DNA from: Pseudomonadaceae bacterium
GTDB taxonomy: Bacteria; Pseudomonadota; Alphaproteobacteria; UBA2136; UBA6156
Assembly (NCBI GenBank): GCA_024236095.1
Contig: JACKLD010000012.1
Location: forward strand, 345,219-409,218
Length of the DNA: 64,000 bases
Reading direction: 5' to 3'
This document shows positions 36,913 to 61,178 of this stretch, in pieces. Below the pieces are notes generated by a model, which had not been told where the DNA came from, searched no databases, and saw nothing but the letters and a program-made list of their open reading frames with translations. Every line of letters begins with the position of its first letter. Position 1 is the stretch's first letter. A program made the translations under genes and the position numbers.

Positions 36913-36988
36913 GGGCCTATAGCTCAGTTGGTAGAGCGCGTCGTTCGCAATGACGAGGTCAGCGGTTCGAATCCGCTTAGGTCCACCA
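36913..36988 (+). tRNA. tRNA-Ala (anticodon CGC)
   Basis: Acceptor GGGCCTA/TAGGTCC gives the G3:U70 alanine identity pair. Anticodon arm CGTCG-TTCGCAA-TGACG, T arm AGCGG-TTCGAAT-CCGCT, encoded CCA. Confidence 0.9.
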
Positions 36989-36996
36989 GTTTATTT
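36970..36996 (+). repeat. Left direct repeat (attL core): last 19 nt of tRNA-Ala plus 8 nt downstream
   Basis: aatccgcttaggtccaccagtttattt is identical to 61152-61178. Confidence 0.9.
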
Positions 36997-37026
36997 TTCG
37001 AACCTATCGCATACCGCCTGAAAGCC

Positions 37027-37047
37027 CCCGCAAATGCGGGATTTTTT
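37027..37047 (+). terminator. Rho-independent terminator downstream of tRNA-Ala (island-borne)
   Basis: cccgc aaat gcggg followed by atttttt. Confidence 0.7.
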
Positions 37048-37275
37048 GTGCCTTCTGAGAGCTGATATAAGCCCCAAACCTCTCCAAGTAAGTCTTTTCT
37101 CTCTGAGATGAGGACAAGATAAATCGGCAGCCTTTTTATATTCAATGAGTTGTACGGTTCAAGTTCGTCTTTCAAACCGCCACCCAAACTTTTGTACAAA
37201 CCGTTTCGTCGGTTTGCGGCGGCTTCGCAAAGCTATGGGGATGAAGGCGGAAAACCGCCTGAAACAGGAGGTCCC

Positions 37276-37482
37276 ATGCCGAAGAAGAAACCCGTAAATC
37301 CCCTCCAATCTCCCGCCGAGCGTCTGGCCGCCGTGGCCGAGTTGCTGGCCCTGGGAATCGTGCGATTGGCTGCCCGAAACGATGCCTCTCGAGAGAGAAA
37401 GAAAGCTGGACTTCCGCGGGCTTTGAAGCGTTCCTCCACATCAGAAAAACCCTTGAAAGGAAAGGAGAAATGCCATGGCTAG
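37276..37482 (+). CDS. Possible small basic protein (68 aa) preceding the DUF2924 gene
   Basis: MPKKKPVNPLQSPAERLAAVAELLALGIVRLAARN... aggagg lies upstream. The stop overlaps the next ATG by 8 nt. Confidence 0.35.
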   Translation: MPKKKPVNPLQSPAERLAAVAELLALGIVRLAARNDASRERKKAGLPRALKRSSTSEKPLKGKEKCHG

Positions 37483-37918
37483 TCTGGCTCTCCAGATTGC
37501 CCGATTGCCTGACCACAGCATGTCTGACCTGCGCTTGGTATGGCAGGAGGTGTTTGGCTTTCCATGCCCCCATGGCAACAACCGGATGTACATGATGCGC
37601 CGGATTGCCCATGCCTGGCAGGTGAAACGGTATGGTGGCCTGAGCGAGTTGGACCTCAAGCGGCTGGCGGCGTATGTCGATGAAACCAGCCGCAAGACCA
37701 AAGGTGAGCATAAAGTGGTACGCCCCTTGCCGGGAACAGTAATTGTACGCCGCTGGCATGAGGTGGAGCATCAGGTGATGGTGTTGCGCAGCGGGTTTGA
37801 GTATCGGAACGTCCGCTACAACAGCCTCACCGAGATTGCCCGCGTGATTACAGGCACCCACCAGTCTGGCCCCCTGTTCTTTGGCCTCAGCCGTTCCAGC
37901 AAGGCGCGGCGCTCATGA
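37475..37918 (+). CDS. DUF2924-family protein (usual partner of large serine recombinases)
   Basis: LRLVWQEVFGFPCP...RMYMMRRIAHAWQVKRYGGLS...PGTVIVRRWHEVEHQVMVLRSGFEYRNVRYNSLTEIARVITGTHQSGPLFFGL matches my recollection of DUF2924. Its stop overlaps the recombinase start. Confidence 0.7.
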   Translation: MASLALQIARLPDHSMSDLRLVWQEVFGFPCPHGNNRMYMMRRIAHAWQVKRYGGLSELDLKRLAAYVDETSRKTKGEHKVVRPLPGTVIVRRWHEVEHQVMVLRSGFEYRNVRYNSLTEIARVITGTHQSGPLFFGLSRSSKARRS

Positions 37919-39381
37919 AGCTAGCCCAGGCCAATTCTCCCTATCTCAAACCCAAGGTGCGCTGTGCGGTTTATACCCGCAAATCCACTGACGAAGGGTT
38001 GGCCATGGAGTACAACTCACTTGATGCCCAACGGGATGCGGCGGAGGCGTACATCCGGTCCCAGCTGCATGAAGGATGGGTTTTGGTGCCCGAGCGCTAT
38101 GACGACCCTGCCTATTCCGGTGGGACCATGGATCGTCCCGCCCTCCAGCGGCTGATGACCGATATCAAAGCCGGTCGGGTGCAGATGGTGGTGGTTTACA
38201 AGATTGACCGCCTGTCGCGCTCGCTGATGGATTTTGCCACCCTGGCACGGATGTTTGAGGAGCATGGGGCCAGCTTTGCCTCGGTGACCGAACAGTTCAG
38301 CACCGCCAATGCCATTGGTCGGCTGCACCTCAACATGATTCTGAGTTTTGCCCAATTCGAGCGGGAACTTGCAGGCGAACGCATCCGCGACAAGTTTTCC
38401 GCCTCCAAAAAGAAGGGGATGTGGATGGGGGGCTATCCTCCCCTGGGGTACGATGTGGCCAACCGCCACCTGCTGGTCAACACCCCTGAAGCTGAAACGG
38501 TGCGGTGGATCTTCCAGCGGTTTCTGGAACTGCGTTCATACCGTGAATTGGCCCGAGAATTAAACGCTGCAGGCCATCTCAGCAAGCTACTTGTTACCCA
38601 GCAGGGCAAACGCCGCGGGGGAAATCCGTTTACCCCGATGGCGGTCCACGCCATCCTTCGCAACCCCATTTACATTGGCAAAATCAATGATCATGGCACT
38701 CTCTATGATGGGTTGCACGAAGCCATCATCTCCACCGATGTGTGGGAACGGGTCCAGAAATCCATCAAGGCATCGCGTTTCAAAGGGCGGACGCCTGGAA
38801 AAACCTCCAGCATCTTAAGGGGTATGGTCCATTGTGCCTGCTGTAAATCGTCGATGGCGCATACGTTCACCCGCAAGAAGGATGGGCGTTTGTACCGCTA
38901 TTTCACTTGCAGCACAATGCGGCGACGTGTCGATCGGCATTGCTCCATGCCTACGGTTTCAGCGGACGAGCTGGAAAAGACCGTCTTGACGCAACTGCAA
39001 AATCTCCTCCGTCAACCGCGGGTCATCACGCAGGTTTGGGAGAGCCTTCAGGGTATAGGGCATGCGTTCTCGGAAGAGGATGTTCGTCGCCAATTGGGCA
39101 ACATGGCAGCGGTGTGGGACGAGCTATTTCCATTGGAGCAACGCAATCTCATTCAAATGTTGGTCCGTCGCGTGGAGATGTCTCCTCAGGGGGCGGACAT
39201 CCACATGCACATAGATCGGATTGGAGAACTGATGGTGGAGAACAATCCCAAGGAGGAAATGTCTGATGAAGTCAACAAACGAAATGCCCAACCCCGTGAT
39301 ACACGTGCCCATGCGATACCAGCGCACCGGCGGGCGGATCATGGTGCTGGCTCCGCACGCGGATACGGACAGCCTCGATGA
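37915..39381 (+). CDS. Large serine recombinase (resolvase catalytic domain + recombinase domain + zinc ribbon)
   Basis: VRCAVYTRKSTDEGL...NSLDAQR, VVVYKIDRLSRSLMDF, FAQFERELAGERIRDK and CxxC...C...C (CACCKS...CSTMRRRVDRHC). Confidence 0.9.
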   Translation: MKLAQANSPYLKPKVRCAVYTRKSTDEGLAMEYNSLDAQRDAAEAYIRSQLHEGWVLVPERYDDPAYSGGTMDRPALQRLMTDIKAGRVQMVVVYKIDRLSRSLMDFATLARMFEEHGASFASVTEQFSTANAIGRLHLNMILSFAQFERELAGERIRDKFSASKKKGMWMGGYPPLGYDVANRHLLVNTPEAETVRWIFQRFLELRSYRELARELNAAGHLSKLLVTQQGKRRGGNPFTPMAVHAILRNPIYIGKINDHGTLYDGLHEAIISTDVWERVQKSIKASRFKGRTPGKTSSILRGMVHCACCKSSMAHTFTRKKDGRLYRYFTCSTMRRRVDRHCSMPTVSADELEKTVLTQLQNLLRQPRVITQVWESLQGIGHAFSEEDVRRQLGNMAAVWDELFPLEQRNLIQMLVRRVEMSPQGADIHMHIDRIGELMVENNPKEEMSDEVNKRNAQPRDTRAHAIPAHRRADHGAGSARGYGQPR

Positions 39382-39688
39382 GGGTGTGGTGGGCAAGGTG
39401 CTGGGTGCGGTGGAGGCCTATGCCACCCGCGACGAGCGCCTACAGGCCATGCTAGCGGCGGAGATCGATAAAGCCCGCCAGCACGATGTGACGACCTTCG
39501 ACAAGAACGACCTGTTCAGTAACCGTCTGCGGAGCAGTGTGCGACCGCTCATCACCTTCGCGGCCATGGCTTGGTACATCTACGCCCGCCTGACCGGCAT
39601 TCCCCTAGCCGGGGAGGACTATGCCATCATCGGCGGGGTAATGATGTTCTGGTTCGGGTTCAGGCCGTTTGAGAAAAGACAGGTTTGA
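39341..39688 (+). CDS. 3-TM holin-like protein (GTA/phage holin family resemblance), start uncertain
   Basis: GVVGKVLGAV at the N-terminus, RSSVRPLITFAAMAWYIY and the C-terminal FGFRPFEKR resemble the holin-of-3TMs family as I recall it. Its 5' end overlaps the recombinase 3' end. The track ORF begins at 39266. Confidence 0.4.
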   Translation: MVLAPHADTDSLDEGVVGKVLGAVEAYATRDERLQAMLAAEIDKARQHDVTTFDKNDLFSNRLRSSVRPLITFAAMAWYIYARLTGIPLAGEDYAIIGGVMMFWFGFRPFEKRQV

Positions 39689-39690
39689 CT

Positions 39691-39704
39691 TTGATGTAGG
39701 TCAA
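39691..39704. promoter_or_regulatory. FNR/NnrR-type box upstream of nnrS
   Basis: TTGATgtagGTCAA matches TTGAT-N4-ATCAA at 9 of 10 half-site positions. Confidence 0.6.
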
Positions 39705-39710
39705 GAAGAT

Positions 39711-40934
39711 ATGTCTCAAATTATCTACAACGGTCTTATGAAAAATATTCATTCGGTTTCGCGGTATCTTTTCTCACTTGGTTTTAGGCCCTTTTTTTTA
39801 GGAGCAGGGGTTTATGCTGCGTGGTCGCTTATTGCATGGTTATCCGTTTATTTAGGGGGCGTTTCTATCCCTCATATATGGGACGATGGCATGGTGTGGC
39901 ATGCCCATGAGATGATTTATGGCTTTACGGCAGCGGTGATTGGGGGCTTTTTGTTGACGGCAGTGCCGAATTGGACCAAAGCCCGCCCTATACGGGCCTG
40001 GCCACTGATGGTGTTGTTTAGCCTGTGGTTAGTGGGGCGGTTAGTCATGCATTGCGGTTCGCTTTTACCCTGGGGGATTGTGGCTGCGTTAGATATGGTC
40101 TTTTTGCCTGCGGTGGGTTTAAGCCTATTACCCGCCGTGATACGTGGAAGCAGTGTGAGGAACTATGTTTTCTTTGTTATTCTGGCATTTATGACGCTGC
40201 TCAACGGTTTCATTCATGTGGGAATGCAAGGGTATGTGTTGTGGCTGGATGCTCATCAAGCCCTGCGTGCTGCCCTATTTTTGATTTGCCTGATGATCAC
40301 CATTTTTGGCGGACGTGTGGTACCGATGTTTACCCGCAATGCCTTGAAAGTGAGTGAGGTTGACGTTGTGATGCGTGTTCATCCACTTTTGGAAAAAGCC
40401 TCACTTGGTAGCGTGTTTATTCTTGTGGTTTTTGCGTTGATTGGACAGGCTGAGTCGGCATGGATGGGTTGGCTGGCTTTAATGGTAGGAGCTTTGCATC
40501 TGTTCCGGTTGTTTGGCTGGCACGGGCATCGTACCCTCCGCATGCCGATTGTATGGGTTCTGCACGCAGGATATGGCTGGATTGCCTTTGGTTTTTTAGC
40601 CTATGGATTGGCATTGTTGGTAGAGCCCTCCTTCATATTGGTCGCTTTACATATTTTAACCATTGGCGGCATTGGCACCATGACATTGGCCATGATGAGC
40701 CGCGTGAGCCTTGGCCATACCGGGCACAAACTTCAGGCTGCCAAGGCCGTGGTTGCCGCCTATGCCCTTCTTCAAGTGGCTGTTCTCGTGAGAATTGCAG
40801 GTGGGTTGGGGTGGTTGGATTATACCCATGCGATTGCCCTTTCGGGCATGTTATGGAGCACAACCTTTGCCTTGTTTTCGGCTGTTTACTTACCTATTCT
40901 GCTACGGCCACGGGCCGATGGGCCTGCAGATTAA
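39711..40934 (+). CDS. nnrS: NnrS-family membrane protein (NO-response, haem/copper protein family)
   Basis: YLFSLGFRPFFLGAG near the N-terminus and about 12 hydrophobic segments. An alternative start at 39738 (MKNIHS...) fits the promoter geometry better. Confidence 0.85.
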   Translation: MSQIIYNGLMKNIHSVSRYLFSLGFRPFFLGAGVYAAWSLIAWLSVYLGGVSIPHIWDDGMVWHAHEMIYGFTAAVIGGFLLTAVPNWTKARPIRAWPLMVLFSLWLVGRLVMHCGSLLPWGIVAALDMVFLPAVGLSLLPAVIRGSSVRNYVFFVILAFMTLLNGFIHVGMQGYVLWLDAHQALRAALFLICLMITIFGGRVVPMFTRNALKVSEVDVVMRVHPLLEKASLGSVFILVVFALIGQAESAWMGWLALMVGALHLFRLFGWHGHRTLRMPIVWVLHAGYGWIAFGFLAYGLALLVEPSFILVALHILTIGGIGTMTLAMMSRVSLGHTGHKLQAAKAVVAAYALLQVAVLVRIAGGLGWLDYTHAIALSGMLWSTTFALFSAVYLPILLRPRADGPAD

Positions 40935-41635
40935 AAGTTACGGAATGCGACCCTGACTTTGCGAGGAGTAGCGACAAACGCTTGATTCAGAATTATTTTC
41001 TGGGGTTCCAGATTTCCTAATGTTTCACCATGACGGTAATTTTGAACGTGATAGGTGCCCGTGTAGCCGCGCTGTTTCAGGTCATCCTGGATGGCCAGAA
41101 TATCTATCTCGTTCAGGAGGTCGGTGTGCACCGTGGTCCGGATATCCAGCGCAATCTGAGATTGGTGAATAAGCAAATCCAACGTTGTGCCAAACGCATC
41201 CCACAGGCTTTCGCGCAGGCCCGTCACCTGTTTAAATTTGGGCCGGGGTGCTTTGTAATCCATGGCCACCATGTCCAAAAGCCCTTCCGCAACCAAAGCC
41301 TGTACCACATCAGGGCGGGTACCGTTGGTGTCCAGCTTCAATCTGTAGCCAAGGGCTTTGACATCTTTGGCAAATGACACCAGGTGCGGGTGCAGCGTTG
41401 CCTCACCGCCCGAAAACACCACACCCGTCAGCCTTCCCTGCCGTTGCTGCAGGAAAGCGAGGATTTCGTCCCATGGTTTTATACCCACACTCCGCACCAT
41501 CTCGGGGTTATGGCAGTAAGCGCAGCGCAGGTTGCACCCTGCAAACCAGACAATACAGGCCAATTCACCGGGGTAATCCAGTTGCGTAAAGGGGGTGAGG
41601 CTATACACCCCCACAGGTTTTGTGCAGGTTGCCAT
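40931..41635 (-). CDS. nrdG: Anaerobic ribonucleoside-triphosphate reductase activating protein (radical SAM)
   Basis: DYPGELACIVWFAGCNLRCAYCHNPE (CxxxCxxC), immediately downstream of nrdD. Confidence 0.9.
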   Translation of the reverse strand: MATCTKPVGVYSLTPFTQLDYPGELACIVWFAGCNLRCAYCHNPEMVRSVGIKPWDEILAFLQQRQGRLTGVVFSGGEATLHPHLVSFAKDVKALGYRLKLDTNGTRPDVVQALVAEGLLDMVAMDYKAPRPKFKQVTGLRESLWDAFGTTLDLLIHQSQIALDIRTTVHTDLLNEIDILAIQDDLKQRGYTGTYHVQNYRHGETLGNLEPQKIILNQAFVATPRKVRVAFRNF

Positions 41636-41638
41636 AGG

Positions 41639-43639
41639 TCAGGCGACATTCAGCTTCAGTGATGTTTGTGTGGCTTTATCTTCCGTAAAATGCTTGCGGC
41701 CACGGTGCTCGCCCTTTTTGCCCAGATTAAAGCTGGAGACTGGCCGGTAGTAGCCCATCACCCGTGTCCACACCTCGGTGGTTTGGCCGCAGTGGGGGCA
41801 ACTATGATGCTCGCCTGATAAATATCCATGCTCTTGGCACACACTAAACACGGGGGTGATGGTAATGTACGGCAAGCGATAGTTTTGCAGCACGGTTTTG
41901 ACCAGTTGTTTGCAGGTTTCCCCATCTGTTAGCTTTTCGCTCATGTACAGATGCAATACGGTTCCGCCGGTATATTTTCCTTGCAGATCGTCTTGCAAAT
42001 CCAGGGCCTCAAAGGGGTCATCGGTATGGCCGACCGGGATTTGCGAGGAGTTGGTGTAATAAATATTCGCTTCGGTGCCTGCCTGCAAAATATCGGGAAA
42101 GCGTTTGATATCCTCCTTGGCGAAGCGGTAAGTTGTCCCTTCAGCCGGGGTTGCTTCTAGATTATACAGATGCCCAGTTTCTTCCTGGTAGGCTTTCAGG
42201 CGGGTGCGGATATGTTCCAACACTTCAGCGGCCATGCGACGGCCCTGCTCGCTGGTCACGTCGGTGGCACCTCTCGTAAAGTTCAGCAGCATTTCGTTGA
42301 TACCGTTCACGCCGATGGTTGAGAAGTGGTTCATAAAACCCCGCAAATACCGCTTGGTATAGGGGTAAAGGCCACGGTCATACTGCTGCTGGATAAAGCG
42401 CCGTTTGGCTTCCAAACTGTCGCGGGAAATATCCATCAGCCGTTCAGTTTCAGTAAGCAAGCCCTGCCAATTGCCTGTGAAACGGTGGCCCAAACGCGCC
42501 ATGTTGAGTGTTACTACCCCAATACTGCCAGTCATTTCAGCGCTGCCAAACAGGCCATTGCCACGCTTGAGCAGCTCGCGCAAATCCAACTGCAAGCGGC
42601 AGCACATGCTGCGCACGGCGCCGGGCTGGTAGGCATCTGGGTTGGCCACACGGTTGCCGTGCTCGTCGGTTTTATATTGGCTGCCCACAAAGTTTTGAAA
42701 GTAGCTACTGCCCACTTTGGCGGTATTTTCAAAAATGGCACCGGCAACCTTGCTATTCCAGTCAAAATCCTCGGTAATATTGACAGTAGGAATCGGGAAC
42801 GTGAACGGCTGCCCATGGCTATCGCCTTCCGTCATCACTTCGTAATAAGCCAAGTTAATCAATTCCATTTCTGGCGTAAAATGGCTGTAGCGAAGGTCGG
42901 TCAATGCTTTGATGGTAAAGTCGCGCTGCTTGGCTTTTTCCAGCAAATCTTCCCGATGAGAGAGTTTTTCAAACAAGTGCCGGTCTTGATAGGTGGGCCA
43001 TTGGCTGGCTAAATCTTCGGGCACCACAATATCCAACGTGATGTTGGTAAACGGGCTTTGCCCCCAGCGGGAAGGCACATTCAGGTTATACACAAACTGC
43101 CGGACGGCTTTCTTGACCTCGGCAAAACCAAGGTTATCAATAAACACATAAGGTGCCAGGTAGGTATCAAAGCTGCTAAACGCCTGTGCTCCCGCCCATT
43201 CCGATTGTAAAATACCTAAAAAGTTAGCCATTTGCCCCAATGCTTCACGGAAATGTTTAGGTGGGCGGCTACCAACCCGTCCATGGCCGCAGTTGAAACC
43301 TTCATTCAACACTTGTCGGAGGCTCCAGCCTGCGCAGTAACCAGTTAGGCAATCGAGGTCGTGTATATGGATATCGGCGTTGCGATGCGCTTCACCAGCC
43401 TCGGTGCTGTACACTTCATCCAGCCAGTAGTTGGCAATCACCTTCCCTGCCAGGTTACTCACCAACCCGGCATTGCTGTAACCTACATTGGCATTGGCTT
43501 TGACTCGCCAATCGCTTTGGCTCAGATACTCCTCCACCGTGCTTTGGCACACCACATGGCGTGGTGTCTTTTCATGTCTGTTCTCTGCTGGGATAGAGGG
43601 GGTAGGTTGAAAATCAGACAGCGCAATTACCTTCGCCAT
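41639..43639 (-). CDS. nrdD: Anaerobic (class III) ribonucleoside-triphosphate reductase
   Basis: 666 aa with C-terminal zinc ribbon CQEHGYLSGEHHSCPHCG and glycyl-radical motif TRVMGYYRP. I see no ATP-cone at the N-terminus. Confidence 0.92.
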   Translation of the reverse strand: MAKVIALSDFQPTPSIPAENRHEKTPRHVVCQSTVEEYLSQSDWRVKANANVGYSNAGLVSNLAGKVIANYWLDEVYSTEAGEAHRNADIHIHDLDCLTGYCAGWSLRQVLNEGFNCGHGRVGSRPPKHFREALGQMANFLGILQSEWAGAQAFSSFDTYLAPYVFIDNLGFAEVKKAVRQFVYNLNVPSRWGQSPFTNITLDIVVPEDLASQWPTYQDRHLFEKLSHREDLLEKAKQRDFTIKALTDLRYSHFTPEMELINLAYYEVMTEGDSHGQPFTFPIPTVNITEDFDWNSKVAGAIFENTAKVGSSYFQNFVGSQYKTDEHGNRVANPDAYQPGAVRSMCCRLQLDLRELLKRGNGLFGSAEMTGSIGVVTLNMARLGHRFTGNWQGLLTETERLMDISRDSLEAKRRFIQQQYDRGLYPYTKRYLRGFMNHFSTIGVNGINEMLLNFTRGATDVTSEQGRRMAAEVLEHIRTRLKAYQEETGHLYNLEATPAEGTTYRFAKEDIKRFPDILQAGTEANIYYTNSSQIPVGHTDDPFEALDLQDDLQGKYTGGTVLHLYMSEKLTDGETCKQLVKTVLQNYRLPYITITPVFSVCQEHGYLSGEHHSCPHCGQTTEVWTRVMGYYRPVSSFNLGKKGEHRGRKHFTEDKATQTSLKLNVA

Positions 43640-43652
43640 GGCCAGGGCTCCT

Positions 43653-43701
43653 TTTCTATATGTTGTTTGTTAGGTATGCCTAATAACACCATATATAGTT
43701 A
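43653..43701. promoter_or_regulatory. Two candidate NrdR boxes in the nrdD promoter
   Basis: acaccatatatagtta (43686-43701) and tttctatatgttgttt (43653-43668) resemble acaCwAtATaTwGtgt. Their centres are 33 bp apart. Confidence 0.45.
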
Positions 43702-43710
43702 TTTCTGCGT

Positions 43711-43724
43711 TTGATGTATCTCAA
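43711..43724. promoter_or_regulatory. FNR-type box upstream of nrdD
   Basis: TTGATgtatCTCAA. The centre is 78.5 nt upstream of the nrdD ATG, and an AGGAG Shine-Dalgarno is present. Confidence 0.6.
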
Positions 43725-43754
43725 GTATGACCATTCCATAGTTTGTTTGCGAGA

Positions 43755-44810: not shown

Positions 44811-44811
44811 T

Positions 44812-47808: not shown

Positions 47809-47809
47809 A

Positions 47810-51538: not shown

Positions 51539-51547
51539 GATATTCTC

Positions 51548-53152: not shown

Positions 53153-53165
53153 GGGGGTTTCTCCT

Positions 53166-54467
53166 TTATTTCTTTTGTGAGCCTAAATCTTGGGGCATAG
53201 CCAACGTGGGATGCTCGGATTTTTCCATGTGGCGAATCGTCCAATGCATCCAAATCATGGAAATAATCACCAACCCATAAAGCAGCATGAAGCAGCTGCT
53301 CCAAATACCCGTCAGATCATTCATGACGCCAAACAGAATCGGTAAAATCCAGCCACCCAAACCGCCTACCAGCCCCACCATGCCACTCACGGCGCCCACG
53401 CGGTTGGGGTAATAAGAAACGATATGCTTGTAAACGGCGGCTTTGCCAAAGCTCATGAAAAACCCCAACACAAAGAGAATGCCGGTAAAGGCCCATACAT
53501 TCCAACCGAAACTGAAGGTTATATCGCCTTTAATGCCGTGGATGACATAGTCGGTATGCGGGTAAGCCAACAAAAAACAGCAGATAATGCTCACCCAGAA
53601 GGTGGCGTACATAACCGTACGGGCGCCATAGCGATCAGAGAGCCAGCCGCCCCAAGCACGGAAAACGCTGGCGGAGAGCGAATAGCTGGCAGCGAGTAAT
53701 CCGGCCAATTTGATATCCACCCCGTAAGCGCCCGTTAGGTAGCGCGGCAACCATAAGGCCAAAGCCACAAAGGCCCCAAACACAAAAAAGTAATAGAGAG
53801 AGAAGCGCCAAACACGGGCGTCCTTCAACGGCTCTAACTGGTCCCAGAAACTCTCAGGAGGCTGACCTTCGGCCACACGTTTAGCCAGAGTAGGCTCATC
53901 TTTTGTGCCAAACCAAAATACTGCTGTCATCAGCAGCAAGGCCGCCGCCCAGACTTGGGCCACCATGGGCCAGCCAAAGGCAATCATCACATATGGAGCC
54001 ACAAACTTGGTAACAGCCGCCCCGGCATTGCCCATGCCCAATACTCCCATGGCCATCCCTTTACGGTGGGGGGGGAACCAGTGAGCTACGTAAGTAATTC
54101 CCACTACGAACGACCCTCCCGCAATGCCGACCCCAAGGGCCGCCAGGAGGATTTGACTATAGGTTTGCGCCCCACTCAGGAGAAATGTAGCCAGCGAGGA
54201 TGCCAACATCACCCAGGCAAACATCACACGACCACCGAACTGGTCTGTCCATATACCCAGCATTAAACGGATAAGCGAACCGGTCAGGATGGGGGTACCC
54301 ACCAAAATGCCCAACTGGGTGTCACTTAATCCGAGGTCTTTCTGAATCTGTACCCCAATAATGGCAAAGATCGTCCACACGGCAAAACAGACGGTAAAGG
54401 CAAGAGTACTCAGTGAAAGTGCGGCTGTTTGGTCACCCGTTGAAGGCGCTATATTCTCATTTTTCAT
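53166..54467 (-). CDS. narK: Nitrate transporter, NarK1-like (MFS, NNP family)
   Basis: ATG at 54467. LAFTVCFAVWTIFAIIGVQIQKDLGLSDTQ and GIWTDQFGGR. Confidence 0.88.
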   Translation of the reverse strand: MKNENIAPSTGDQTAALSLSTLAFTVCFAVWTIFAIIGVQIQKDLGLSDTQLGILVGTPILTGSLIRLMLGIWTDQFGGRVMFAWVMLASSLATFLLSGAQTYSQILLAALGVGIAGGSFVVGITYVAHWFPPHRKGMAMGVLGMGNAGAAVTKFVAPYVMIAFGWPMVAQVWAAALLLMTAVFWFGTKDEPTLAKRVAEGQPPESFWDQLEPLKDARVWRFSLYYFFVFGAFVALALWLPRYLTGAYGVDIKLAGLLAASYSLSASVFRAWGGWLSDRYGARTVMYATFWVSIICCFLLAYPHTDYVIHGIKGDITFSFGWNVWAFTGILFVLGFFMSFGKAAVYKHIVSYYPNRVGAVSGMVGLVGGLGGWILPILFGVMNDLTGIWSSCFMLLYGLVIISMIWMHWTIRHMEKSEHPTLAMPQDLGSQKK

Positions 54468-54500
54468 GGGGTCAAAATGCACCTTATTTTGCAACCCCAC

Positions 54501-54514
54501 TTGAGGCAGATCAA
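54501..54514. promoter_or_regulatory. FNR-type box in the divergent narK1 / moeB promoter region
   Basis: TTGAGgcagATCAA. The centre is 40.5 nt from the narK1 ATG and 41.5 nt from the moeB ATG. Confidence 0.6.
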
Positions 54515-54548
54515 TCGGCAACTGAAAGTGACCTCTAAAGTAACCCCC

Positions 54549-55265
54549 ATGAGTGAATTACGACACAGTCGGTATGGCTTGCTTGCAGGGGTGGAAACTG
54601 AGGGACTAGCACGTCAATACCAAACACATATCACACTGATCGGTTGTGGAGGGGTTGGACAAGCCGTGACGGGGATGTTGGGAGCCGCTGGGAATGGATG
54701 CCTAACCCTGATTGACCCCGAACATATTACCCTTAGCAACATCAGCCGCCTACCGCTAATGCAGGCCAGCGATGTTGGACGCCCTAAGGTAGAAGCATTG
54801 GCCGATGCCATTCGGCGAAATCATCCCGAACAGCGGGTTATATGTTTGCAGGAGATTATCAGTTCGCGGACGCTGGATGGATTGTGCAGTAAAACCAATA
54901 TTATGATTGATGCCACCGATAACTGGCCAACCCGCAAACTGCTTGCAACCTATTGCCGTGAGAAAAAGATACCCCTTGTCAGTGGTGGAGCTTTGGCCAC
55001 CGATGGCTGGGTGGGGATGTTCATGCCCGATGGCCCGCCGCTGGAAGCGTGGCTAGGCCAGCCTGGGCAATTGGCCGATACCTGCGAGAGTGTGGGCGTG
55101 TTGGGGCCACTGGTGGGGATTGTGGGTAACTGGATGGCCATGGAGACCCTGAAACTCATCTGGCAGAGCAGCAACCCAACCCGGTGGCAAACGCTCACGG
55201 GGCGAATTGTTTACATTGATGGTCGTTATAGCGATGTTCGAATACAACCTCTTGGCAATGCCTAA
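54549..55265 (+). CDS. moeB: Molybdopterin-synthase adenylyltransferase (ThiF/MoeB family, no rhodanese domain)
   Basis: ATG at 54549. RYGLL..., nucleotide loop LIGCGGVGQAV, SNISRLPL and DATDNWPTR. Confidence 0.8.
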   Translation: MSELRHSRYGLLAGVETEGLARQYQTHITLIGCGGVGQAVTGMLGAAGNGCLTLIDPEHITLSNISRLPLMQASDVGRPKVEALADAIRRNHPEQRVICLQEIISSRTLDGLCSKTNIMIDATDNWPTRKLLATYCREKKIPLVSGGALATDGWVGMFMPDGPPLEAWLGQPGQLADTCESVGVLGPLVGIVGNWMAMETLKLIWQSSNPTRWQTLTGRIVYIDGRYSDVRIQPLGNA

Positions 55266-55555
55266 ATGCGGCTAAGCCTATCCCGTTTATCTACTTCCAT
55301 TATAATTTTTGGTGTCACGGTGTTCAGGATAATCCCGTTTTCGGGCTCGGCCTGAAGGTCATGAAAGTCTCTTGTTCCCAGTTTCAACAATGGGAAGGAT
55401 GGCCAACCTGTCAGTACCGAGATTGGTCCTGACGTAGACTGAACCGTCCATTCCCATCCTGCGCACGTCATATGGAGAGCTTCCGCTGTTAACGCCTCAA
55501 GTTCGGCATAGGTTAACCGGATACGCACACCTTCCGAGGTCAGGGTCAGCTTCAT
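55262..55555 (-). CDS. Hypothetical protein (97 aa), translationally coupled to mobA
   Basis: The ATG overlaps the mobA stop (ATGA). MKLTLTSEGVRIRLTYAELEALT... has no recognisable family. Confidence 0.5.
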   Translation of the reverse strand: MKLTLTSEGVRIRLTYAELEALTAEALHMTCAGWEWTVQSTSGPISVLTGWPSFPLLKLGTRDFHDLQAEPENGIILNTVTPKIIMEVDKRDRLSRI

Positions 55556-56127
55556 GAGTTTGATACATCCTTCATATTTTGAAGGGCTGCCCAATCATCC
55601 GGTGTATTGATATTTGTCAAAAAGCCAGTTTGTTTAGGTCGTGGCAACCATACAGCTTCTGGTATTATGTCCCATAAGCCTTTAAGTGATGCTCCTGGCT
55701 GCTTGGCGTAAGTGGTTACCTTCTGCTGAAGGTCTGGGGTGATACGCATCACACAGGGTAAAGGGTTCTCCGCATAGGCCACCAAGGGAGAAGGATGGAT
55801 CAACAAAGACTGCAAGGCCGCGGGTGTGAGCAGTGGCATATCCACCGGCGCTATGATGATTTTACCGGGGATAAGTGAAAACATCGCGTGTATCTGGTTC
55901 ATCATGTTGGCAATGGCAGCCACAGGGCCCCGAAAGGGTTGCGCATCGGGTAGGCTTGGCCAACCCGTAACCTGCCGTCCTGCCATCAACACGGCATCAC
56001 ATCCTGCTTGTTTCAGCAGATGGGCTTGCCGTTCCAACAAGGATTGACCATGCCACACCAGTTCGGCTTTATCGCGGCCCATGCGGCTGGAACGCCCACC
56101 CGCGAGAACCACACCCAACAGGCTCAT
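55552..56127 (-). CDS. mobA: Molybdenum cofactor guanylyltransferase
   Basis: MSLLGVVLAGGRSSRMGRDKAEL is the canonical N-terminus. Confidence 0.9.
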   Translation of the reverse strand: MSLLGVVLAGGRSSRMGRDKAELVWHGQSLLERQAHLLKQAGCDAVLMAGRQVTGWPSLPDAQPFRGPVAAIANMMNQIHAMFSLIPGKIIIAPVDMPLLTPAALQSLLIHPSPLVAYAENPLPCVMRITPDLQQKVTTYAKQPGASLKGLWDIIPEAVWLPRPKQTGFLTNINTPDDWAALQNMKDVSNS

Positions 56128-56585
56128 GCAGTTTCTCCTATTGTTTTGGCAAGCGCTTCAGGAAGGGGCGTGCCCTCCAGCCATGCTTCTTGGCCATTGG
56201 CATAAACCTCACATTTCCAAATCGGTACGCGCTGTTTGATGGTCTCAATCAAAAAGCGGCTGGCTTCATACGCTGCGGCGCGTTTGGGGGTTCCCACGGC
56301 AATATATACGCTAGGTTGGCCGATTTCAATGCGCCCATAGGCATGGGCCAGTATGAGTGTGTTGATTTCCCACTGTACCAGGGCATCTTCAGCAATAGAA
56401 TTCAGGGCTTGTCGGGCCAATTCGGGGGCACAGTCATAATCCAGTGCCACCACAGGTTTGCCAAGGTTCTGGTTACGCACTACGCCTACAAACGTCAGTA
56501 AAGCGCCTGATTCAGCATCTTGCGGTGTTGTTATCAACGCATTGAGATTCAGCGGGCCGTGTTGCAAGTGAATGAGAGGTTGCAT
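56124..56585 (-). CDS. moaE: Molybdopterin synthase catalytic subunit
   Basis: GALLTFVGVVRN...PSVYIAVGTPKRAAAYEASRFLIETIKQRVPIWK. Confidence 0.9.
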   Translation of the reverse strand: MQPLIHLQHGPLNLNALITTPQDAESGALLTFVGVVRNQNLGKPVVALDYDCAPELARQALNSIAEDALVQWEINTLILAHAYGRIEIGQPSVYIAVGTPKRAAAYEASRFLIETIKQRVPIWKCEVYANGQEAWLEGTPLPEALAKTIGETA

Positions 56586-56588
56586 GGT

Positions 56589-56843
56589 TTATCCCCCACA
56601 CACGGGCGGTAAAACCGCCAAATCTTCATGCAGTGGCAGTACATCATCTGGCTTCAGAACCTGCGTGCGTGTGGCCAGGGCAATAGCTTGTCCATCCAGC
56701 GGGATAAGTTCTAACAGACGTATTTGGGCTTCCCGCACGGTCGTGTTTTCAGGCAGTTCAAGAATCAACGTACGGCTGCCATAGGTGGCTTGGGTCATGC
56801 CATACAGGGTAAAGGTTAAGCTTGGCATGGCGGTAATCTCCAT
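56589..56843 (-). CDS. moaD: Molybdopterin synthase sulfur-carrier subunit
   Basis: About 80 aa ending in ...LPPVCGG (C-terminal Gly-Gly), directly upstream of moaE. The start is possibly at 56828. Confidence 0.85.
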   Translation of the reverse strand: MEITAMPSLTFTLYGMTQATYGSRTLILELPENTTVREAQIRLLELIPLDGQAIALATRTQVLKPDDVLPLHEDLAVLPPVCGG

Positions 56844-58045
56844 TCAGTGCTGAGCAGGGGGGAAACTTCAATGAGACTCCCCGCCGCATGGTCTCCCACT
56901 ACATGCAGCCACGCATTACAGGTGGCTAGGTTAGCCACGCGGTGGGATTCGTTCCCTGTAAGCGGCTGAACCAAAAGACGACCATCTTCACCAACACTGG
57001 TACGCCCACGGATGAATGTCCGAAAGCCAATTTTACCCGCACAGGGGTTAGTCAGAGTCGCTTTGATGGTGTTCATGCCCTGCAGCATCGGCTTGCCCAT
57101 GAGTAAAGGGAACACAACCGCTTGCAGCGCCACGAGTTGGGAGATAGGGTTACCAGGCAACCCAACCAGAATAGCGCCGTTGGGGAACCTCGCTATGAGC
57201 AGCGGCTTGGCAGGCTTTATCGCCAGCCGATGCAGCACAATTGTAGCACCTAGCGCTTTGGCCACATCCGGCACATGGTCGGCCACACCTTTACTAACCC
57301 CGCCCGTGGTGAGGATAAGCTGCACACCTGCATCAAGGGCCTGCTGCATGGCTGCCTGCAATGCTTCCTTGGTGTCTTGGACCTGCTGTGATGTTATCAG
57401 GCATTTATCAAGTTGGTGTAATGCGCTTACCATGCAGTCTCGCGTGCTTTCATACACGCTTCCGGCGGCTAAGTTTTTGTCAATCTCTACCAGCTCGTTA
57501 CCTGTTTGTATAAGGTTAATGGCCACCGGCGCCAACACCTTCACTTGCCGCACACCAGCAGTGCGGAGCAACACCAAATGCTGGGCCAGAAGCCTTGTTC
57601 CTTGAGGTAATATAGGTTGGTTGTGTTTAAAATCTTCCCCCTGAGCTCGGATATGCTGCCCAGCCCGTAAAGGTATATCCCAAAACAGTTTACCTTCCTG
57701 TTCGCGCACATCTTCAACCGGAATAACAGCAGCTGTTTGGGAAGGTACGGGAGCACCCGTCATGATGGCACAGGTTGTGCCTGCCTTAAGGTTAGGGGCG
57801 GCCATGCCTGCCAGTACCGTGCCCGCAATAGTCAACCCGCCCACACCCGCATTTATATCTTTGGCGTGAATCGCCCATCCATCCATGGCCGACATGGCAA
57901 AGCGGGGATTGGATGACTCGGCTAACACGTCTTCAGCCAACACCTGGCCGAGCAGACCCATACCTACATCGCAGTATTGCGACGTGCGGGATAGGTGCAG
58001 ATGCGCCAAGGATTCAGCAGCTTGTTCCCAGGTTGATAAGGCCAT
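56816..58045 (-). CDS. moeA: Molybdopterin molybdenumtransferase
   Basis: 409 aa with SAMDGWA, LILTTGGVSKGVADHV and LPGNPISQ. Confidence 0.9.
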   Translation of the reverse strand: MALSTWEQAAESLAHLHLSRTSQYCDVGMGLLGQVLAEDVLAESSNPRFAMSAMDGWAIHAKDINAGVGGLTIAGTVLAGMAAPNLKAGTTCAIMTGAPVPSQTAAVIPVEDVREQEGKLFWDIPLRAGQHIRAQGEDFKHNQPILPQGTRLLAQHLVLLRTAGVRQVKVLAPVAINLIQTGNELVEIDKNLAAGSVYESTRDCMVSALHQLDKCLITSQQVQDTKEALQAAMQQALDAGVQLILTTGGVSKGVADHVPDVAKALGATIVLHRLAIKPAKPLLIARFPNGAILVGLPGNPISQLVALQAVVFPLLMGKPMLQGMNTIKATLTNPCAGKIGFRTFIRGRTSVGEDGRLLVQPLTGNESHRVANLATCNAWLHVVGDHAAGSLIEVSPLLSTEWRLPPCQA

Positions 58046-58048
58046 GTT

Positions 58049-58588
58049 CTAGCTCCCCTTCAGCATAGTGGCCAGCGCATGGGGCAGAATCGGCCCCAAT
58101 ACCTCAAAGCTTTCTCCAATCGCCTTGGGGTTCCCCGGCAAGGCTACAATCAGAGTATCTCTGTAAATTAGCGCCACACTGCGACTTAGAAAACTGGTGG
58201 GAGTATAGGTGGCGCCATGTGCCCGAATAAGCTCGGCCAAGCCGGGCACTTCTTTGCCACCCAAGCCCAAAAGGGTTTCTGGCGTAATATCCCGTGGACC
58301 AAGGCCAGTACCGCCGCTGGTGATAATCAGATTCGAACCTTCCGCTTGCAAATCATGAATCGCTTGCACAAGTGCCACCGATTCATCCGGCACAATACGG
58401 GTGGTGAGAATCTGGATAGCACCATAGTTACGGAGAGATTCCTCTAACGCAGGTCCCGCTTTATCTTGATATTCACCGCGGCTGGCCCGGTCGGAGAGTA
58501 TAATCCCCGCACAGGTAAAGTCAGCCAACGTGGTATCGCCATGTTTCAAGCGTTCGGCCTGCTGGCGGGCCAAAGGGGATAACGTCAT
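58049..58588 (-). CDS. moaB: MoaB/MogA-family molybdenum cofactor biosynthesis protein
   Basis: Start taken at Met31 of the track ORF, preceded by aaggagcaaaacg. AGIILSDRASRGEYQDKAGP, IITSGGTGLGPRD and LPGNPKA. Confidence 0.85.
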   Translation of the reverse strand: MTLSPLARQQAERLKHGDTTLADFTCAGIILSDRASRGEYQDKAGPALEESLRNYGAIQILTTRIVPDESVALVQAIHDLQAEGSNLIITSGGTGLGPRDITPETLLGLGGKEVPGLAELIRAHGATYTPTSFLSRSVALIYRDTLIVALPGNPKAIGESFEVLGPILPHALATMLKGS

Positions 58589-58749
58589 CGTTTTGCTCCT
58601 TTCTAAGGGGTTGAGAGATCCATCGGTTTCCCCATGAACCTGGCCGGTTATTGCTTCAACCGACGGCCTGATTAGCATAGTAGGAATATCACGTTAGCTT
58701 CTCAGGCTTCAGAGCCACGGGTAGATTGGCATGGTTTAGATTTACCAAG

Positions 58750-58763
58750 TTGATCTGTATCAA
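58750..58763. promoter_or_regulatory. Perfect FNR box in the divergent moaB-operon / hemN promoter region
   Basis: TTGATctgtATCAA. The centre is 39.5 nt from the hemN ATG at 58796. Confidence 0.7.
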
Positions 58764-58795
58764 TCGATGGAATGTTTCTTGGGTCATGCTGCGGC

Positions 58796-60163
58796 ATGGA
58801 ATTCAAAGACCAGCACCAAAGTACCCTTGTTGAAAAATATGATCGGCCCGTGCCGCGTTATACGAGCTATCCAACAGCGGCACAGTTTCAGGATAACATC
58901 TCACCTAACATCGTCGATTCATGGCTGAAAAGCCTTTATCCAGAACAATCACTCTCTCTCTACGTTCATTTGCCATTTTGTCCGTCTTTATGTTCTTACT
59001 GTGGCTGCAATATGCGCGTCACCCACAGCCAAAGCCTGATGCAAGGGTATTTGGCTGCCTTGCGGGATGAAATCACCATGGTGATGGCCAAATTGCCAGC
59101 ACGCATGGCCGTTTCAACCTTACACTTGGGTGGAGGTACGCCAACCTATTATGCGGCTGAAGATTTGTCATCTCTCTTTAAATTTATCGGTCAATACGTC
59201 GTTTTTACCCCAGGTGCAGAAATCTCGTTGGAAGTTGATCCACGTCGGTTCACGCGCACGCAAGCCGCTCACCTTAAAAAAGCCGGCGTCAATCGGGTCA
59301 GCCTAGGCGTTCAGGATACCAACTCCCATGTTCAAAAAGCGATTGGGCGTAATCAGACGCTGGAACAAACAGTACAAGCTTTTCAGATGTTGCATGACGA
59401 AGGCATTGAGGCCATCAACACTGACCTCATTTATGGGTTACCCCTGCAAACTCCAGAATCTATCGCTCAGACAGCCTGCGACGTTGCCAATCTTCGCCCA
59501 TCACGCCTTGCGTTGTATGGTTATGCCCATGTGCCGTGGATGAAGCGCCATCAAAGATTACTCGAACCGCATGGCTTGCCCGATGGCCCAGAGCGTATGG
59601 CACTTTTCATGGCGGCACGTGAAGTCTTTATTCAAAATGGCTATATTCCGGTGGGGATAGACCATTTTGCCTTACCAGACGATCCTTTGGTTTTGGCCGC
59701 CGCGAGAGGCGAACTGCATCGCAACTTTATGGGCTACACGACAGATACAGCCAAAACGCTTCTGGGATTTGGCGTATCTGCCATCAGTTCATACCCGCAG
59801 GGATACGTTCAAAACACGACATCTATTAAAGATTATCTGCATCAGGTACGCCAAAAAGCTCTCCCCATATGGAAAGGTTTACAGCTAACTGAACTTGATA
59901 AATGTTCCGCTGAAATCATTGAGAAACTTCTTTGCCAATTTCAAGTTGATATTGCCGAGGTGGCAGGCATGCACAGCCTACAGCCCTCTCATATCAAAGT
60001 TCATACCCTTAATCTTCATCAAATGATGTCGGACGGCCTTGTGGTGGGGGATACAGAGGATAAAATCATCATCACCGAGCGTGGCAAACCGTTTGCCCGC
60101 ATTGTTGCCTCCTGTTTCGATGGCTATTTACGCCAAAGCGAACTGCGTCATTCACGGCTATAG
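58796..60163 (+). CDS. hemN: Oxygen-independent coproporphyrinogen III oxidase (radical SAM)
   Basis: KYDRPVPRYTSYPTA and LYVHLPFCPSLCSYCGCN (CxxxCxxC). About 455 aa from the ATG at 58796. Confidence 0.92.
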   Translation: MEFKDQHQSTLVEKYDRPVPRYTSYPTAAQFQDNISPNIVDSWLKSLYPEQSLSLYVHLPFCPSLCSYCGCNMRVTHSQSLMQGYLAALRDEITMVMAKLPARMAVSTLHLGGGTPTYYAAEDLSSLFKFIGQYVVFTPGAEISLEVDPRRFTRTQAAHLKKAGVNRVSLGVQDTNSHVQKAIGRNQTLEQTVQAFQMLHDEGIEAINTDLIYGLPLQTPESIAQTACDVANLRPSRLALYGYAHVPWMKRHQRLLEPHGLPDGPERMALFMAAREVFIQNGYIPVGIDHFALPDDPLVLAAARGELHRNFMGYTTDTAKTLLGFGVSAISSYPQGYVQNTTSIKDYLHQVRQKALPIWKGLQLTELDKCSAEIIEKLLCQFQVDIAEVAGMHSLQPSHIKVHTLNLHQMMSDGLVVGDTEDKIIITERGKPFARIVASCFDGYLRQSELRHSRL

Positions 60164-60925
60164 GCCAAACATCCGGCAACGCACCTTATCTCGATCTTTG
60201 CATTTATGCGCATGTACAGGGTCGCAATTAGGACATAGTACGTCCTTGTTATCCAGCTTCACGTGTTTGCCTTTGACATGAATACCCCGTTCAGCCAGAA
60301 CTTTGAGGCAACGGGAGAATGTTTCGGGCGTCAGTCCTAAATGGTTGGCGATTTCAGCCTTTTCATAAGGGAGAGAAAACTCTTGGCGCGGGGCATGGCT
60401 CTCGAGCATAACCCTCAATAAAAAATGAGCCACCCGCTCGACAGCAGGGTGGATGGTGACCAATTCCAGCTGGTACATCATCTCATTTGTTCGCTCGGCC
60501 AAAACACCCATAATATTGATGGCAAACTGAGGGATCTTAGCAATGCAGTCTTTAAGCTGGCTGGATGTGAGTGCCAGCATCGTGACATCCGATTCAGTTT
60601 GTGCCGAGACAGGCGATGGTTTGCCATAAAAAACAACATTCTCTAGAATACTTTCACCTGGCCCTAAGAGACGGGTAATGATTTCCTCACCTTCCTCAGT
60701 ACACCGAAATACCTTAATCCGGCCATCAAGGATAATAAATACTCCAGGCGGTTGATCTCCCTGGTTAATAATCCGCATCCCGCGCTCAAACTTACGGAGA
60801 ATCCCAGTTCCAGCAATCTGGCTAGCCTGCTCCGGGCTCAAATCATAAAAAAGGCGGCTCTTTAGTAAGGAAGCAGAGAGCTTGGGGTCCGTGATAAGTT
60901 TATGAAGAATCGAATTTGTAGCCAT
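60158..60925 (-). CDS. Crp/Fnr-family transcriptional regulator with C-terminal Cys-rich tail
   Basis: cNMP-binding-like fold (GDQPPGVFIILDGRIKVF) and HTH with the FNR-type recognition helix ETFSR. The tail is CPNCDPVHAHKCKDRDKVRC. There is no N-terminal Cys cluster. Confidence 0.85.
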   Translation of the reverse strand: MATNSILHKLITDPKLSASLLKSRLFYDLSPEQASQIAGTGILRKFERGMRIINQGDQPPGVFIILDGRIKVFRCTEEGEEIITRLLGPGESILENVVFYGKPSPVSAQTESDVTMLALTSSQLKDCIAKIPQFAINIMGVLAERTNEMMYQLELVTIHPAVERVAHFLLRVMLESHAPRQEFSLPYEKAEIANHLGLTPETFSRCLKVLAERGIHVKGKHVKLDNKDVLCPNCDPVHAHKCKDRDKVRCRMFGL

Positions 60926-61151
60926 GTGAGTACCATAGCGATATAAATGATCTAGGACAAGTTCTTGGCCTAAAGAGTTGTCTAGAAAAATAGAACAATC
61001 TCTTGCTTATAATAACGAATCTTATAGAGAGGTTTGATGGGAAGTAAGAATTTGCACCCCACCAGTCTCTCTCCGCAGGAGAGTTTCATTTGAATCCTAA
61101 CGGAACGCGGCTTCAAACATGGCCGTGAGGCCGACTCCAAACAAGAGACGC

Positions 61152-61178
61152 AATCCGCTTAGGTCCACCAGTTTATTT
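61152..61178 (+). repeat. Right direct repeat (attR core)
   Basis: aatccgcttaggtccaccagtttattt is identical to 36970-36996. There is no tRNA homology upstream of it. Confidence 0.9.

Follow-up and report, generated by a model that had tools for sequence, protein, structure and literature searches.

A probable decayed siphophage prophage with an anaerobic nitrate-respiration cargo at a tRNA-Ala gene of an uncultured alphaproteobacterium

Clusters of nar genes have been described as mobile units, but what is usually ascribed to phages is single auxiliary genes and not a regulated pathway of ~20 genes. Classical genomic islands at tRNA genes carry tyrosine integrases and a duplicated tRNA 3' segment at their flanks, and the WO prophages of Wolbachia have a large accessory module at one end. 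Among the closest described systems, the NCE of Thermus thermophilus comprises a mobile nar operon, nitrate/nitrite transporters and oxygen-responsive regulators, and enables strain-specific anaerobic growth on nitrate (PMC5748679, PMC6282519). Denitrification genes are often predicted to lie on genomic islands, for instance in Arctic Pseudomonas (PMC10494350), narG and narH have been reported on a metagenomic phage bin from a vent-snail symbiont (PMC8418041), and WO prophages carry a DUF2924 gene beside their recombinase (PMC11376236). Here, we analyze a stretch of 64,000 nucleotides (the window, to which all coordinates refer unless a locus is named; contig JACKLD010000012.1 of assembly GCA_024236095.1, positions 345,219 to 409,218) from a host that RecA places among uncultured Alphaproteobacteria. 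Behind its tRNA-Ala gene lies an element (36989-61067) that is probably the decayed prophage of a lambda-like temperate siphophage, which has kept its integration module and a cargo of genes for nitrate respiration and anaerobic life.

The ends of the element were read from related copies. The comparison loci used for this purpose (L-numbers) were fetched from assemblies with proteins at least 90% identical to the NarG, NrdD, DUF2924 and Crp proteins of the window. Left junctions all read ...CCACCA/GTTTATYTTTCGAACC (the slash marks the junction): in the window, GTTTATTTTTCGAACCTATCGC... and then a hairpin stand directly 3' of the tRNA-Ala CCA, and the same left-end sequence follows two different tRNA-Val(GAC) genes (L001, L168) and a tRNA-Val(CAC) gene (L166), in alignments that span the left arm at 89.7-97.1% identity. 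Right junctions all end in ...GCACCCCACCA/ and face six different flanks, one of them shared by the window and L174 and the others those of L167, L169, L170, L171 and L173. Homology to these last five copies (88-99.7% identity) ends at 61064-61067, and the sixth, L174 (~76% identical), has the same right junction and a flank in common with the window to ~61132. The left and right junctions (four and six contexts, respectively) share only CCACCA or CCCACCA, which is compatible with short attachment (att) sites attP and attB and a 2-bp crossover that may take place in the last bases of the tRNA. Two copies are fully contiguous and differ in both flanks: that of the window, with lgt, tRNA-Ile and tRNA-Ala on the left and tRNA-Leu on the right, and that of the JGI contig Ga0498938_0000007 (1.11 Mb), with tRNA-Tyr and tRNA-Val on the left and YflT, glyA and gyrA on the right.

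An alternative, proposed in the initial annotation, is a self-contained island of 24.2 kb that is bounded by an exact 27-bp direct repeat and was integrated site-specifically into the tRNA-Ala 3' end across a 27-bp core. The repeat itself (AATCCGCTTAGGTCCACCAGTTTATTT) is real and far beyond chance, with two exact copies in the window, no further copy there at up to three mismatches and none in 100 shuffles; ARAGORN and Rfam agree on the tRNA-Ala gene, so that the left copy is its 3' end plus 8 nt, and a recombinase does lie beside the tRNA. The fall in composition relative to the flanks is also real, with a G+C fraction of 0.56-0.69 (mean, ~0.61) over 1-37000 against 0.47-0.57 over 37001-63000, and tetranucleotide distances from the left flank of 0.028-0.035 within the block against 0.011-0.014 for flank windows. 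However, low G+C extends ~1.8 kb beyond the right repeat, to ~63,000, and a third, partial copy lies there as well. Serine integrases exchange strands at a 2-bp crossover, neither needing a long core nor making long target duplications, and the 27-bp repeat is therefore suspect as a boundary. Five near-identical copies lose homology at 61064-61067 and not at 61151 or 61178, and the longer homology of L174 is due to the flank that it shares with the window. The element at tRNA-Val has only CCCACCA common to both junctions, and on the right of the JGI copy no tRNA-end seed of at least 10 nt is repeated. The right 27-mer, which lies 85 bp past the element end where a classical island would have its tRNA 3' repeat at both ends, is tRNA-Ala-specific (GGTCCACCA) against CCCCACCA in the right arm of the element, and is followed by the opening 8 nt of the left arm. 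What stands of the proposal is a foreign block seated at the tRNA-Ala 3' end; the repeat as its boundary is very unlikely, the right end being at 61067.

The link between the cargo and a phage comes from a metagenomic contig, SRR32464027_44268 (42,741 bp; loci L168, L179 and L175), which starts inside a tRNA-Val gene and continues with a small open reading frame (ORF), the DUF2924 gene, the recombinase and then a complete lambda-like siphophage. Its early phage genes comprise regulatory genes, an AAA_25 primase/helicase-type protein and a ParB-methylase; its head genes encode a GpA terminase, gpW, portal, S49 protease, HDPD decoration protein and E-type major capsid protein; and its tail and lysis genes encode the tube, a 1000-aa tape measure, a GpJ-like protein, a Peptidase_M15_3 endolysin and a 132-aa protein. 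After the 132-aa gene come nnrS, nrdG, nrdD, PAS and MCP genes, narI, narJ, narH and the start of narG, a cargo stretch with 99.2-99.6% nucleotide identity to the window. The last phage gene is separated from nnrS by ~23 nt, which hold only an FNR box and no att-like sequence, and junctions of the same kind occur in L176 and L166. On a second contig of that sample (L169), the genes from narK1 to crp are followed by the right arm and host flank. Near a tRNA-Met, L182-L184 have the same endolysin and 132-aa genes followed by a different redox cargo (a Pyr_redox_2 oxidoreductase, a VTT/DedA protein, a small cNMP-binding protein and a CMD/AhpD-like protein), and because the same two genes precede unrelated cargo, the comparison suggests that the site between the lysis genes and the right arm behaves as an exchangeable cargo slot. 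The interval from lysis genes to att site is the usual place of lysogenic-conversion genes.

These contigs also bear on a second alternative, in which two separate neighbors lie side by side, a native or acquired nar island and a serine-integrase prophage, and the cargo was never in the phage unit. The cargo does lack phage-like genes, it makes up 40% of the composite, an unusual size for the moron region of a phage, and relatives by capsid family lie mostly on contigs of 33-46 kb. Against this, there is neither att site nor spacer between the last phage gene and nnrS; the right arm, ending in CCACCA beyond crp, faces six flanks at 98.9-99.7% identity, which means that the cargo end has been integrated repeatedly; and both ends have moved jointly into different loci in the two contiguous examples. 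We consider two unrelated neighbors very unlikely.

A large deletion separates the window copy from the intact form. Homology of the window to the left part of the phage ends at 39389 and homology to the right part begins at 39372, and the parental sequences share GCCTCGA(T/A)GAGG..GTGGTGG (GCCTCGATGAGG..GTGGTGG) at this point. The phage 107-aa gene, a candidate accessory gene 3' of the integrase, was destroyed by the deletion, while the 68-aa ORF and the DUF2924 gene remain. Terminase, portal, capsid, tail and lysis genes are absent from 36989-61067 and are all found in the 97-99% identical L168/L179/L175. The window copy is a prophage remnant that is not capable of making virions and cannot transfer itself; far from the self-contained unit first described, it is a deletion derivative of a ~55-kb prophage that has lost its replication, packaging, virion and lysis genes. 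In the JGI copy (L166, 10441-12204), a truncated recombinase continues in frame into the S49 prohead protease (587 aa), and the decoration, capsid and endolysin genes are kept, followed by nnrS; here the same prophage has independently undergone an internal deletion. A misassembly, with a phage integrase contig wrongly joined to a nar contig at a short shared sequence, would fit the 18-bp microhomology, the metagenome-type look of the source and the fact that the closest relatives are all metagenome-assembled genomes, but it is extremely unlikely, since both sides of the junction belong to one element in an independent assembly (L168/L175), an independently decayed copy is present on a 1.1-Mb contig (L166), the chimeric ORF keeps its frame and 18 bp is little overlap for a de Bruijn mis-join.

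The recombinase module noted at the start of the segment proved to be that of a large serine phage integrase with a DUF2924 partner. At 488 aa, the enzyme falls within the length of about 450-700 aa taken for large serine recombinases; it has the domains PF00239 (E = 7e-36), PF07508 and PF13408 (both over cut-off), matches phrog_95 "integrase" at E = 9e-117, and keeps R16, Y20, R22 and S24, which are invariant in an alignment of 20 sequences. It is the only recombinase in the element, where a classical island would have a tyrosine integrase beside the tRNA. Its amino acid identity to P0001 is 95%, and the integration module (36964-39389) is 97.1% identical in nucleotides to L168, which carries cluster member P0123. 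Relatives are encoded on at least 590 IMG/VR viral contigs, and the closest integrases of named phages are those of Acidithiobacillus phage AcaML1 (44% identity) and Wolbachia phage WO (~40%); a database look-up returned no record of the exact sequence of the window recombinase. A tRNA scan of 80 IMG/VR contigs with integrases at most 50% identical found no tRNA adjoining any of them, and so either tRNA targeting is not a shared trait of the wider integrase family or those contigs are trimmed. The DUF2924 gene adjoins the recombinase in all relatives examined. The 68-aa ORF in front of it has no Pfam or PHROG match, and its position is filled by 74- and 85-aa ORFs in L002 and L004. Within attL (36964-37004), an 8-bp inverted repeat pairs GGTTCGAA of the tRNA T-loop with TTCGAACC of the element and is centered near the CCA end; the same type of repeat is present at the tRNA-Val junctions, and the two sequences may be integrase half-site motifs. 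A symmetric half-site model built on them by eye gave spacings with no consistent attP/attB geometry and is not relied on.

Each cargo gene that had been named from the sequence (nar, two narK, molybdenum cofactor [Moco] genes, hemN, nrdDG, nnrS, regulator and signaling protein) was confirmed by Pfam and NCBIfam (Table 1). NarG has the Nitr_red_alph_N, Molybdopterin and Molydop_binding domains, NarH has Fer4_11 and Nitr_red_bet_C, NarJ has Nitrate_red_del and NarI has Nitrate_red_gam, with all four genes in operon order. Most late Moco steps are indeed represented (moeB-like, mobA, moaE, moaD with a weak match, moeA and moaB/mog), and the pathway is not complete, as the ORFs of the element include neither moaA nor moaC. 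The MCP gene lacks 536 bp that encode the PAS sensor part in the intact prophage, with the gap at 44649/44650; L175 has a PAS gene plus an MCP gene where the window has the MCP gene alone, and the window protein is probably a truncated, sensor-less receptor.

The element also has its own Crp/Fnr regulator with cognate boxes, as the initial annotation proposed: the protein, FtrB- and Fnr-like with NCBIfam matches under the equivalog cut-offs, combines cNMP-binding and HTH_Crp domains, and TTGAT-N4-ATCAA at up to one mismatch occurs at 9 sites in the window against 1.3 expected, 8 of the 9 inside the block. Four are intergenic promoter boxes, located before nnrS, before nrdD, in the narK1/moeB gap and in the gap between the moaB leader and hemN. 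A Moco riboswitch precedes moaB-moeA-moaD-moaE-mobA, and the cofactor genes of this mobile cargo would therefore be feedback-controlled independently of the host. An anaerobic package that is coherent and predicted to be under FNR control on a derivative of a mobile element thus stands, although this derivative is not self-transmissible.

The data establish the boundaries, the deletion, the link to a phage and what the genes are, while a crossover within CCACCA, the regulation and function of the cargo and past transfer as a phage are inferred. From these data, we propose the following history for the decayed prophage. The intact element would have been ~55 kb long, ordered as P' arm, integration module, replication and regulation genes, head genes (TerL, portal, protease, decoration and capsid), tail genes, endolysin, 132-aa gene, cargo and P arm, with the 21.4-kb cargo (nnrS, nrdGD, PAS-MCP, narIJHG, narK2K1, moeB, mobA-moaEDmoeA-moaB, hemN, crp/fnr) inside the recombination unit, between the lysis genes and attR. 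For integration, the phage site, in which the right arm is joined to the left arm, would pair with the T-arm, acceptor and CCA end of a tRNA gene, and a crossover inside CCACCA would leave the tRNA intact, as the anatomy of the junctions and knowledge of the integrase family predict. After presumed past transfer as a phage, a microhomology-mediated deletion took out 30.8 kb, that is, all phage genes from the integrase to the last gene of the lysis region, leaving an intact integrase, both junctions and the cargo. The window integrase may still be able to excise the element, which hinges on a directionality factor; all transfer functions would have to come from elsewhere.

Judging from the established roles of the gene families, anoxia or nitric oxide (NO) would lead the Crp/Fnr protein of the element to activate the TTGAT-N4-ATCAA promoters of nnrS, nrdDG, narK/moeB and moaB/hemN. 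NarK1 and NarK2 would then exchange nitrate and nitrite (nitrate in, nitrite out), and NarGHI, with NarJ as its chaperone, would reduce nitrate and build proton-motive force. Riboswitch-gated Moco genes would supply the late cofactor steps, with the early ones (moaA, moaC) coming from elsewhere, while NrdDG and HemN would replace O2-dependent synthesis of deoxynucleoside triphosphates and heme, and NnrS would mitigate NO stress.

Whether the intact ~55-kb form is a working temperate phage that packages the cargo and confers an FNR-controlled nitrate-respiration regulon on lysogeny is a further step, which we regard as conceivable but still doubtful. Several observations count against the phage origin and mobility set out above. 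The intact form is pieced together from two contigs of a single metagenome (L168/L175 and L169), which makes the contiguity of narG and narK in it an extrapolation, and contigs sharing the capsid family are mostly 33-46 kb long against ~55 kb for the element, so that packaging with the cargo is only putative. The window is a single assembly, in which the deletion junction is known from the assembly and not from reads. Excision is predicted to join 61067 to 36989 as GCACCCCACCA/GTTTATTTTTCG and, in SRR32464027, to restore a tRNA-Val attB reading ...CCCACCA/TTTTTCCGAAGG. The attP junction had no match in viral contigs and none in metagenome contigs, where a known-positive control (a 22-nt pattern present on Ga0498938_0000007) also gave 0 matches and makes the negatives weak; the same scans, uninformative in their metagenome part, found no excised circle. 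Finally, neither the 27-bp repeat nor the third short copy is explained by the chemistry of a serine integrase.

Table 1. Features of the window from tRNA-Ile to the low-G+C stretch beyond the right 27-bp repeat
Feature	Position	Strand	Evidence and remarks
tRNA-Ile(gat)	36793-36869		ARAGORN, Rfam; precedes tRNA-Ala
tRNA-Ala(CGC)	36913-36988	+	ARAGORN; Rfam 68.9 bits; CCA end is the left junction (attL), gene intact
Left 27-bp copy	36970-36996	+	final 19 nt of tRNA-Ala plus GTTTATTT (first 8 nt of the element)
Left arm (P' arm)	36989-37275	+	reads GTTTATTTTTCGAACC...; terminator-like hairpin GCCCCCGCAAATGCGGGATTTTTT inside
68-aa ORF, first of integration module	37276-37482	+	conserved; same place in L001, L168
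DUF2924 protein	37475-37918	+	PF11149 E = 6e-38; phrog_11806
Large serine recombinase (phage integrase)	37915-39381	+	full length, 488 aa; Resolvase, Recombinase, Zn_ribbon_recom
Chimeric remnant ORF, in frame	39311-39688	+	P0192, 125 aa; N terminus from phage 107-aa gene, C terminus from 132-aa gene
Deletion junction	39372-39389	+	18-bp microhomology; ~30.8 kb of phage genes gone
FNR-type box TTGATGTAGGTCAA	39691-39704	.	between remnant-ORF stop and nnrS ATG
nnrS, heme/copper membrane protein linked to NO stress	39711-40934	+	PF05940 E = 7e-107
nrdG, anaerobic ribonucleotide reductase activase	40931-41635	-	TIGR02495 / NF006126 set, over cut-off
nrdD, anaerobic ribonucleotide reductase	41639-43639	-	TIGR02495 / NF006126 set, over cut-off
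FNR-type box	43711-43724		nrdD side
MCP-signal-domain protein	43806-44852	-	PF00015
narI, narJ, narH, narG	44812-51538	-	respiratory nitrate reductase, Pfam
narK2, nitrate/nitrite transporter (major facilitator superfamily)	51548-53152	-	TIGR00886
narK1, nitrate/nitrite transporter (major facilitator superfamily)	53166-about 54467	-	TIGR00886
narK2-narK1 region as one entry	51548-54521
FNR-type box	54501-54514		divergent gap to moeB
moeB/ThiF-family adenylyltransferase	54549-55265	+	PF00899; NF004281 under cut-off
~100-aa ORF	55262-55594		no family match
Moco operon moaB/mog, moeA, moaD, moaE, mobA	55552-58588	-	Pfam, NCBIfam
moaB/mog	58049-58588	-	Pfam, NCBIfam
Molybdenum-cofactor riboswitch	58580-58726	-	RF01055 52.6 bits vs gathering score 36; in front of moaB
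Perfect FNR-type box TTGATCTGTATCAA	58750-58763	.	between moaB leader and hemN
hemN, oxygen-independent coproporphyrinogen III oxidase	58772-60163	+	TIGR00538 432.9 bits vs cut-off 325 (equivalog)
Crp/Fnr-family regulator	60158-60925	-	cNMP_binding and HTH_Crp_2
Right arm (P arm)	60926-61067	+	ends ...AAGAATTTGCACCCCACCA; attR at 61067/61068
Flank outside element, 84 bp	61068-61151	+	terminator-like hairpin CTCTCCGCAGGAGAG, then TTTCATTT; common to L174 only
Right 27-bp copy	61152-61178	+	outside element
Low-G+C stretch	61179-62956	+	Sel1-like 160-aa ORF, coiled-coil-like 232-aa ORF

Between the window and the JGI genome, identities are 98.4% for NarG, 98.3% for NrdD and 95% for the DUF2924 protein, against 84% for RecA. 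We infer that the element is horizontally acquired because NarG is ~98% identical where RecA is 84%, with which the shift in composition agrees; by the same comparison, the element is much younger than the split of the two hosts. No donor can be named: in a NarG search of species-representative genomes, a set that does not include the source genome, the best matches were at 64-68% and spread over Alpha-, Beta- and Gammaproteobacteria. In the syntenic relative L004, genes for Cu-oxidase_4, Methyltransf_28, lgt, tRNA-Ile and tRNA-Ala follow in the same order, and its tRNA-Ala holds a different prophage with an integrase of the same family (58% identity). The check for an empty site in relatives, which the initial annotation had proposed, thus turned up none, but deviant composition and absence of the element from the site in a relative, two marks of a classical island, are both seen. 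Between tRNA-Ala/attL and the DUF2924-integrase module, L004 encodes a PAS protein and an MCP protein (6545-9560 of that locus). Chemoreceptor-type cargo seems to recur in this family of serine-integrase phages.

The sequence beyond the right end of the element is probably the scar of an earlier occupancy of the same site, running from 61179 to 62956. A third, shorter copy of the tRNA-Ala 3' end plus GTTT (GTCCACCAGTTT; three copies in all against 0.04 expected) lies at 62945-62956, where G+C regains the host level. The ORFs of 61179-62944 have only weak PHROG matches of unknown function, and this part may be the remnant of another mobile element. Possible sources of the repeat scars are older elements with a tRNA-3' core or illegitimate recombination anchored by homology that imported donor DNA. 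Taking 61171-62951 as an older element of the same family was tried and rejected: alignments of its ends to the P' and P arms were not above shuffled controls, and the matches that stand are the 8-nt GTTTATTT and the 12-nt GTCCACCAGTTT. Rfam at a permissive threshold found only the tRNA in 60900-63400. A strong terminator-like hairpin lies at ~62990-63015, just past the third GTCCACCAGTTT copy. Further on (63189-63363, minus strand), the tRNA-Leu(taa) is only 76 nt long and lacks the long variable arm that bacterial tRNA-Leu usually has, and a 5'-truncated second copy (63189-63280), 7 nt downstream, has a 28-nt insert in place of the anticodon loop.

The window copy by itself is a domesticated prophage remnant, an ordinary outcome in which useful cargo was kept, and the lineage behind it is the interesting part. 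The junctions indicate that a single lineage of serine-integrase phages has inserted the package, at ~99% identity, repeatedly behind the CCA of different tRNA genes, in hosts that include genomes with RecA differing by 16%, which suggests that a virus may carry an entire respiratory pathway from one bacterium to another. Should the intact form be infectious, viruses would spread the capacity for nitrate respiration directly, as lysogenic conversion to anaerobic respiration, and ~40% of a viral genome would be host-type metabolism. This would bear on the movement of denitrification potential within sediment and wastewater communities and on the reading of "viral" genes of the nitrogen cycle in metagenomes. 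The family may also yield a serine integrase whose natural target, the T-arm plus CCA end of a tRNA, is near-universal and for which cargo above 20 kb is demonstrably tolerated, which would be of interest for genome engineering.

A phage-borne nitrate-respiration regulon appears to be new; the combination set out below was found neither in the literature searched nor among the deposited phages and plasmids searched. By megablast, the whole element had no match among deposited phages and, among plasmids, only conserved narG/narH cores at ~74% identity. An endolysin probe found no close phage relatives in IMG/VR. What we judge new is the combination of a siphophage with a serine integrase that targets the tRNA CCA end, a regulated anaerobic package of ~20 genes and junctions from several independent insertions. 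One deposited record, "Stenotrophomonas phage TS-12" (GenBank MW302330.1, L181; 79.8 kb, circular), has a narGHJI-like block annotated as hypothetical proteins and located next to Gram-positive-style lysis genes, with a NarG-like product 50% identical to that of the window; the entry is a genuine phage with cargo or else a problematic record. Earlier cases of phage nar genes are single bins or records without defined att junctions, whereas here ~20 genes with their own regulator have junctions defined by several insertions.

Like the Thermus NCE, the element is a mobile nar cluster with transporters and its own regulators. The NCE, however, moves by conjugation or transjugation from a megaplasmid region, in contrast to a siphophage prophage with serine-integrase junctions at a tRNA, and the window element adds Moco genes, nrdDG, hemN and nnrS. 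With metabolic islands at tRNA genes, it shares low G+C, adjacency to a tRNA, a terminal recombinase, accessory respiration and a patchy distribution; unlike classical tRNA islands, it has a flanking identity of 6-7 bp and an integrase of the serine type. The integrases of AcaML1 and WO have the same three-domain architecture as the window recombinase. Unlike these phages, the element targets a tRNA CCA end, carries a respiratory regulon in place of eukaryote-interaction genes and, in the window copy, has lost its virion genes.

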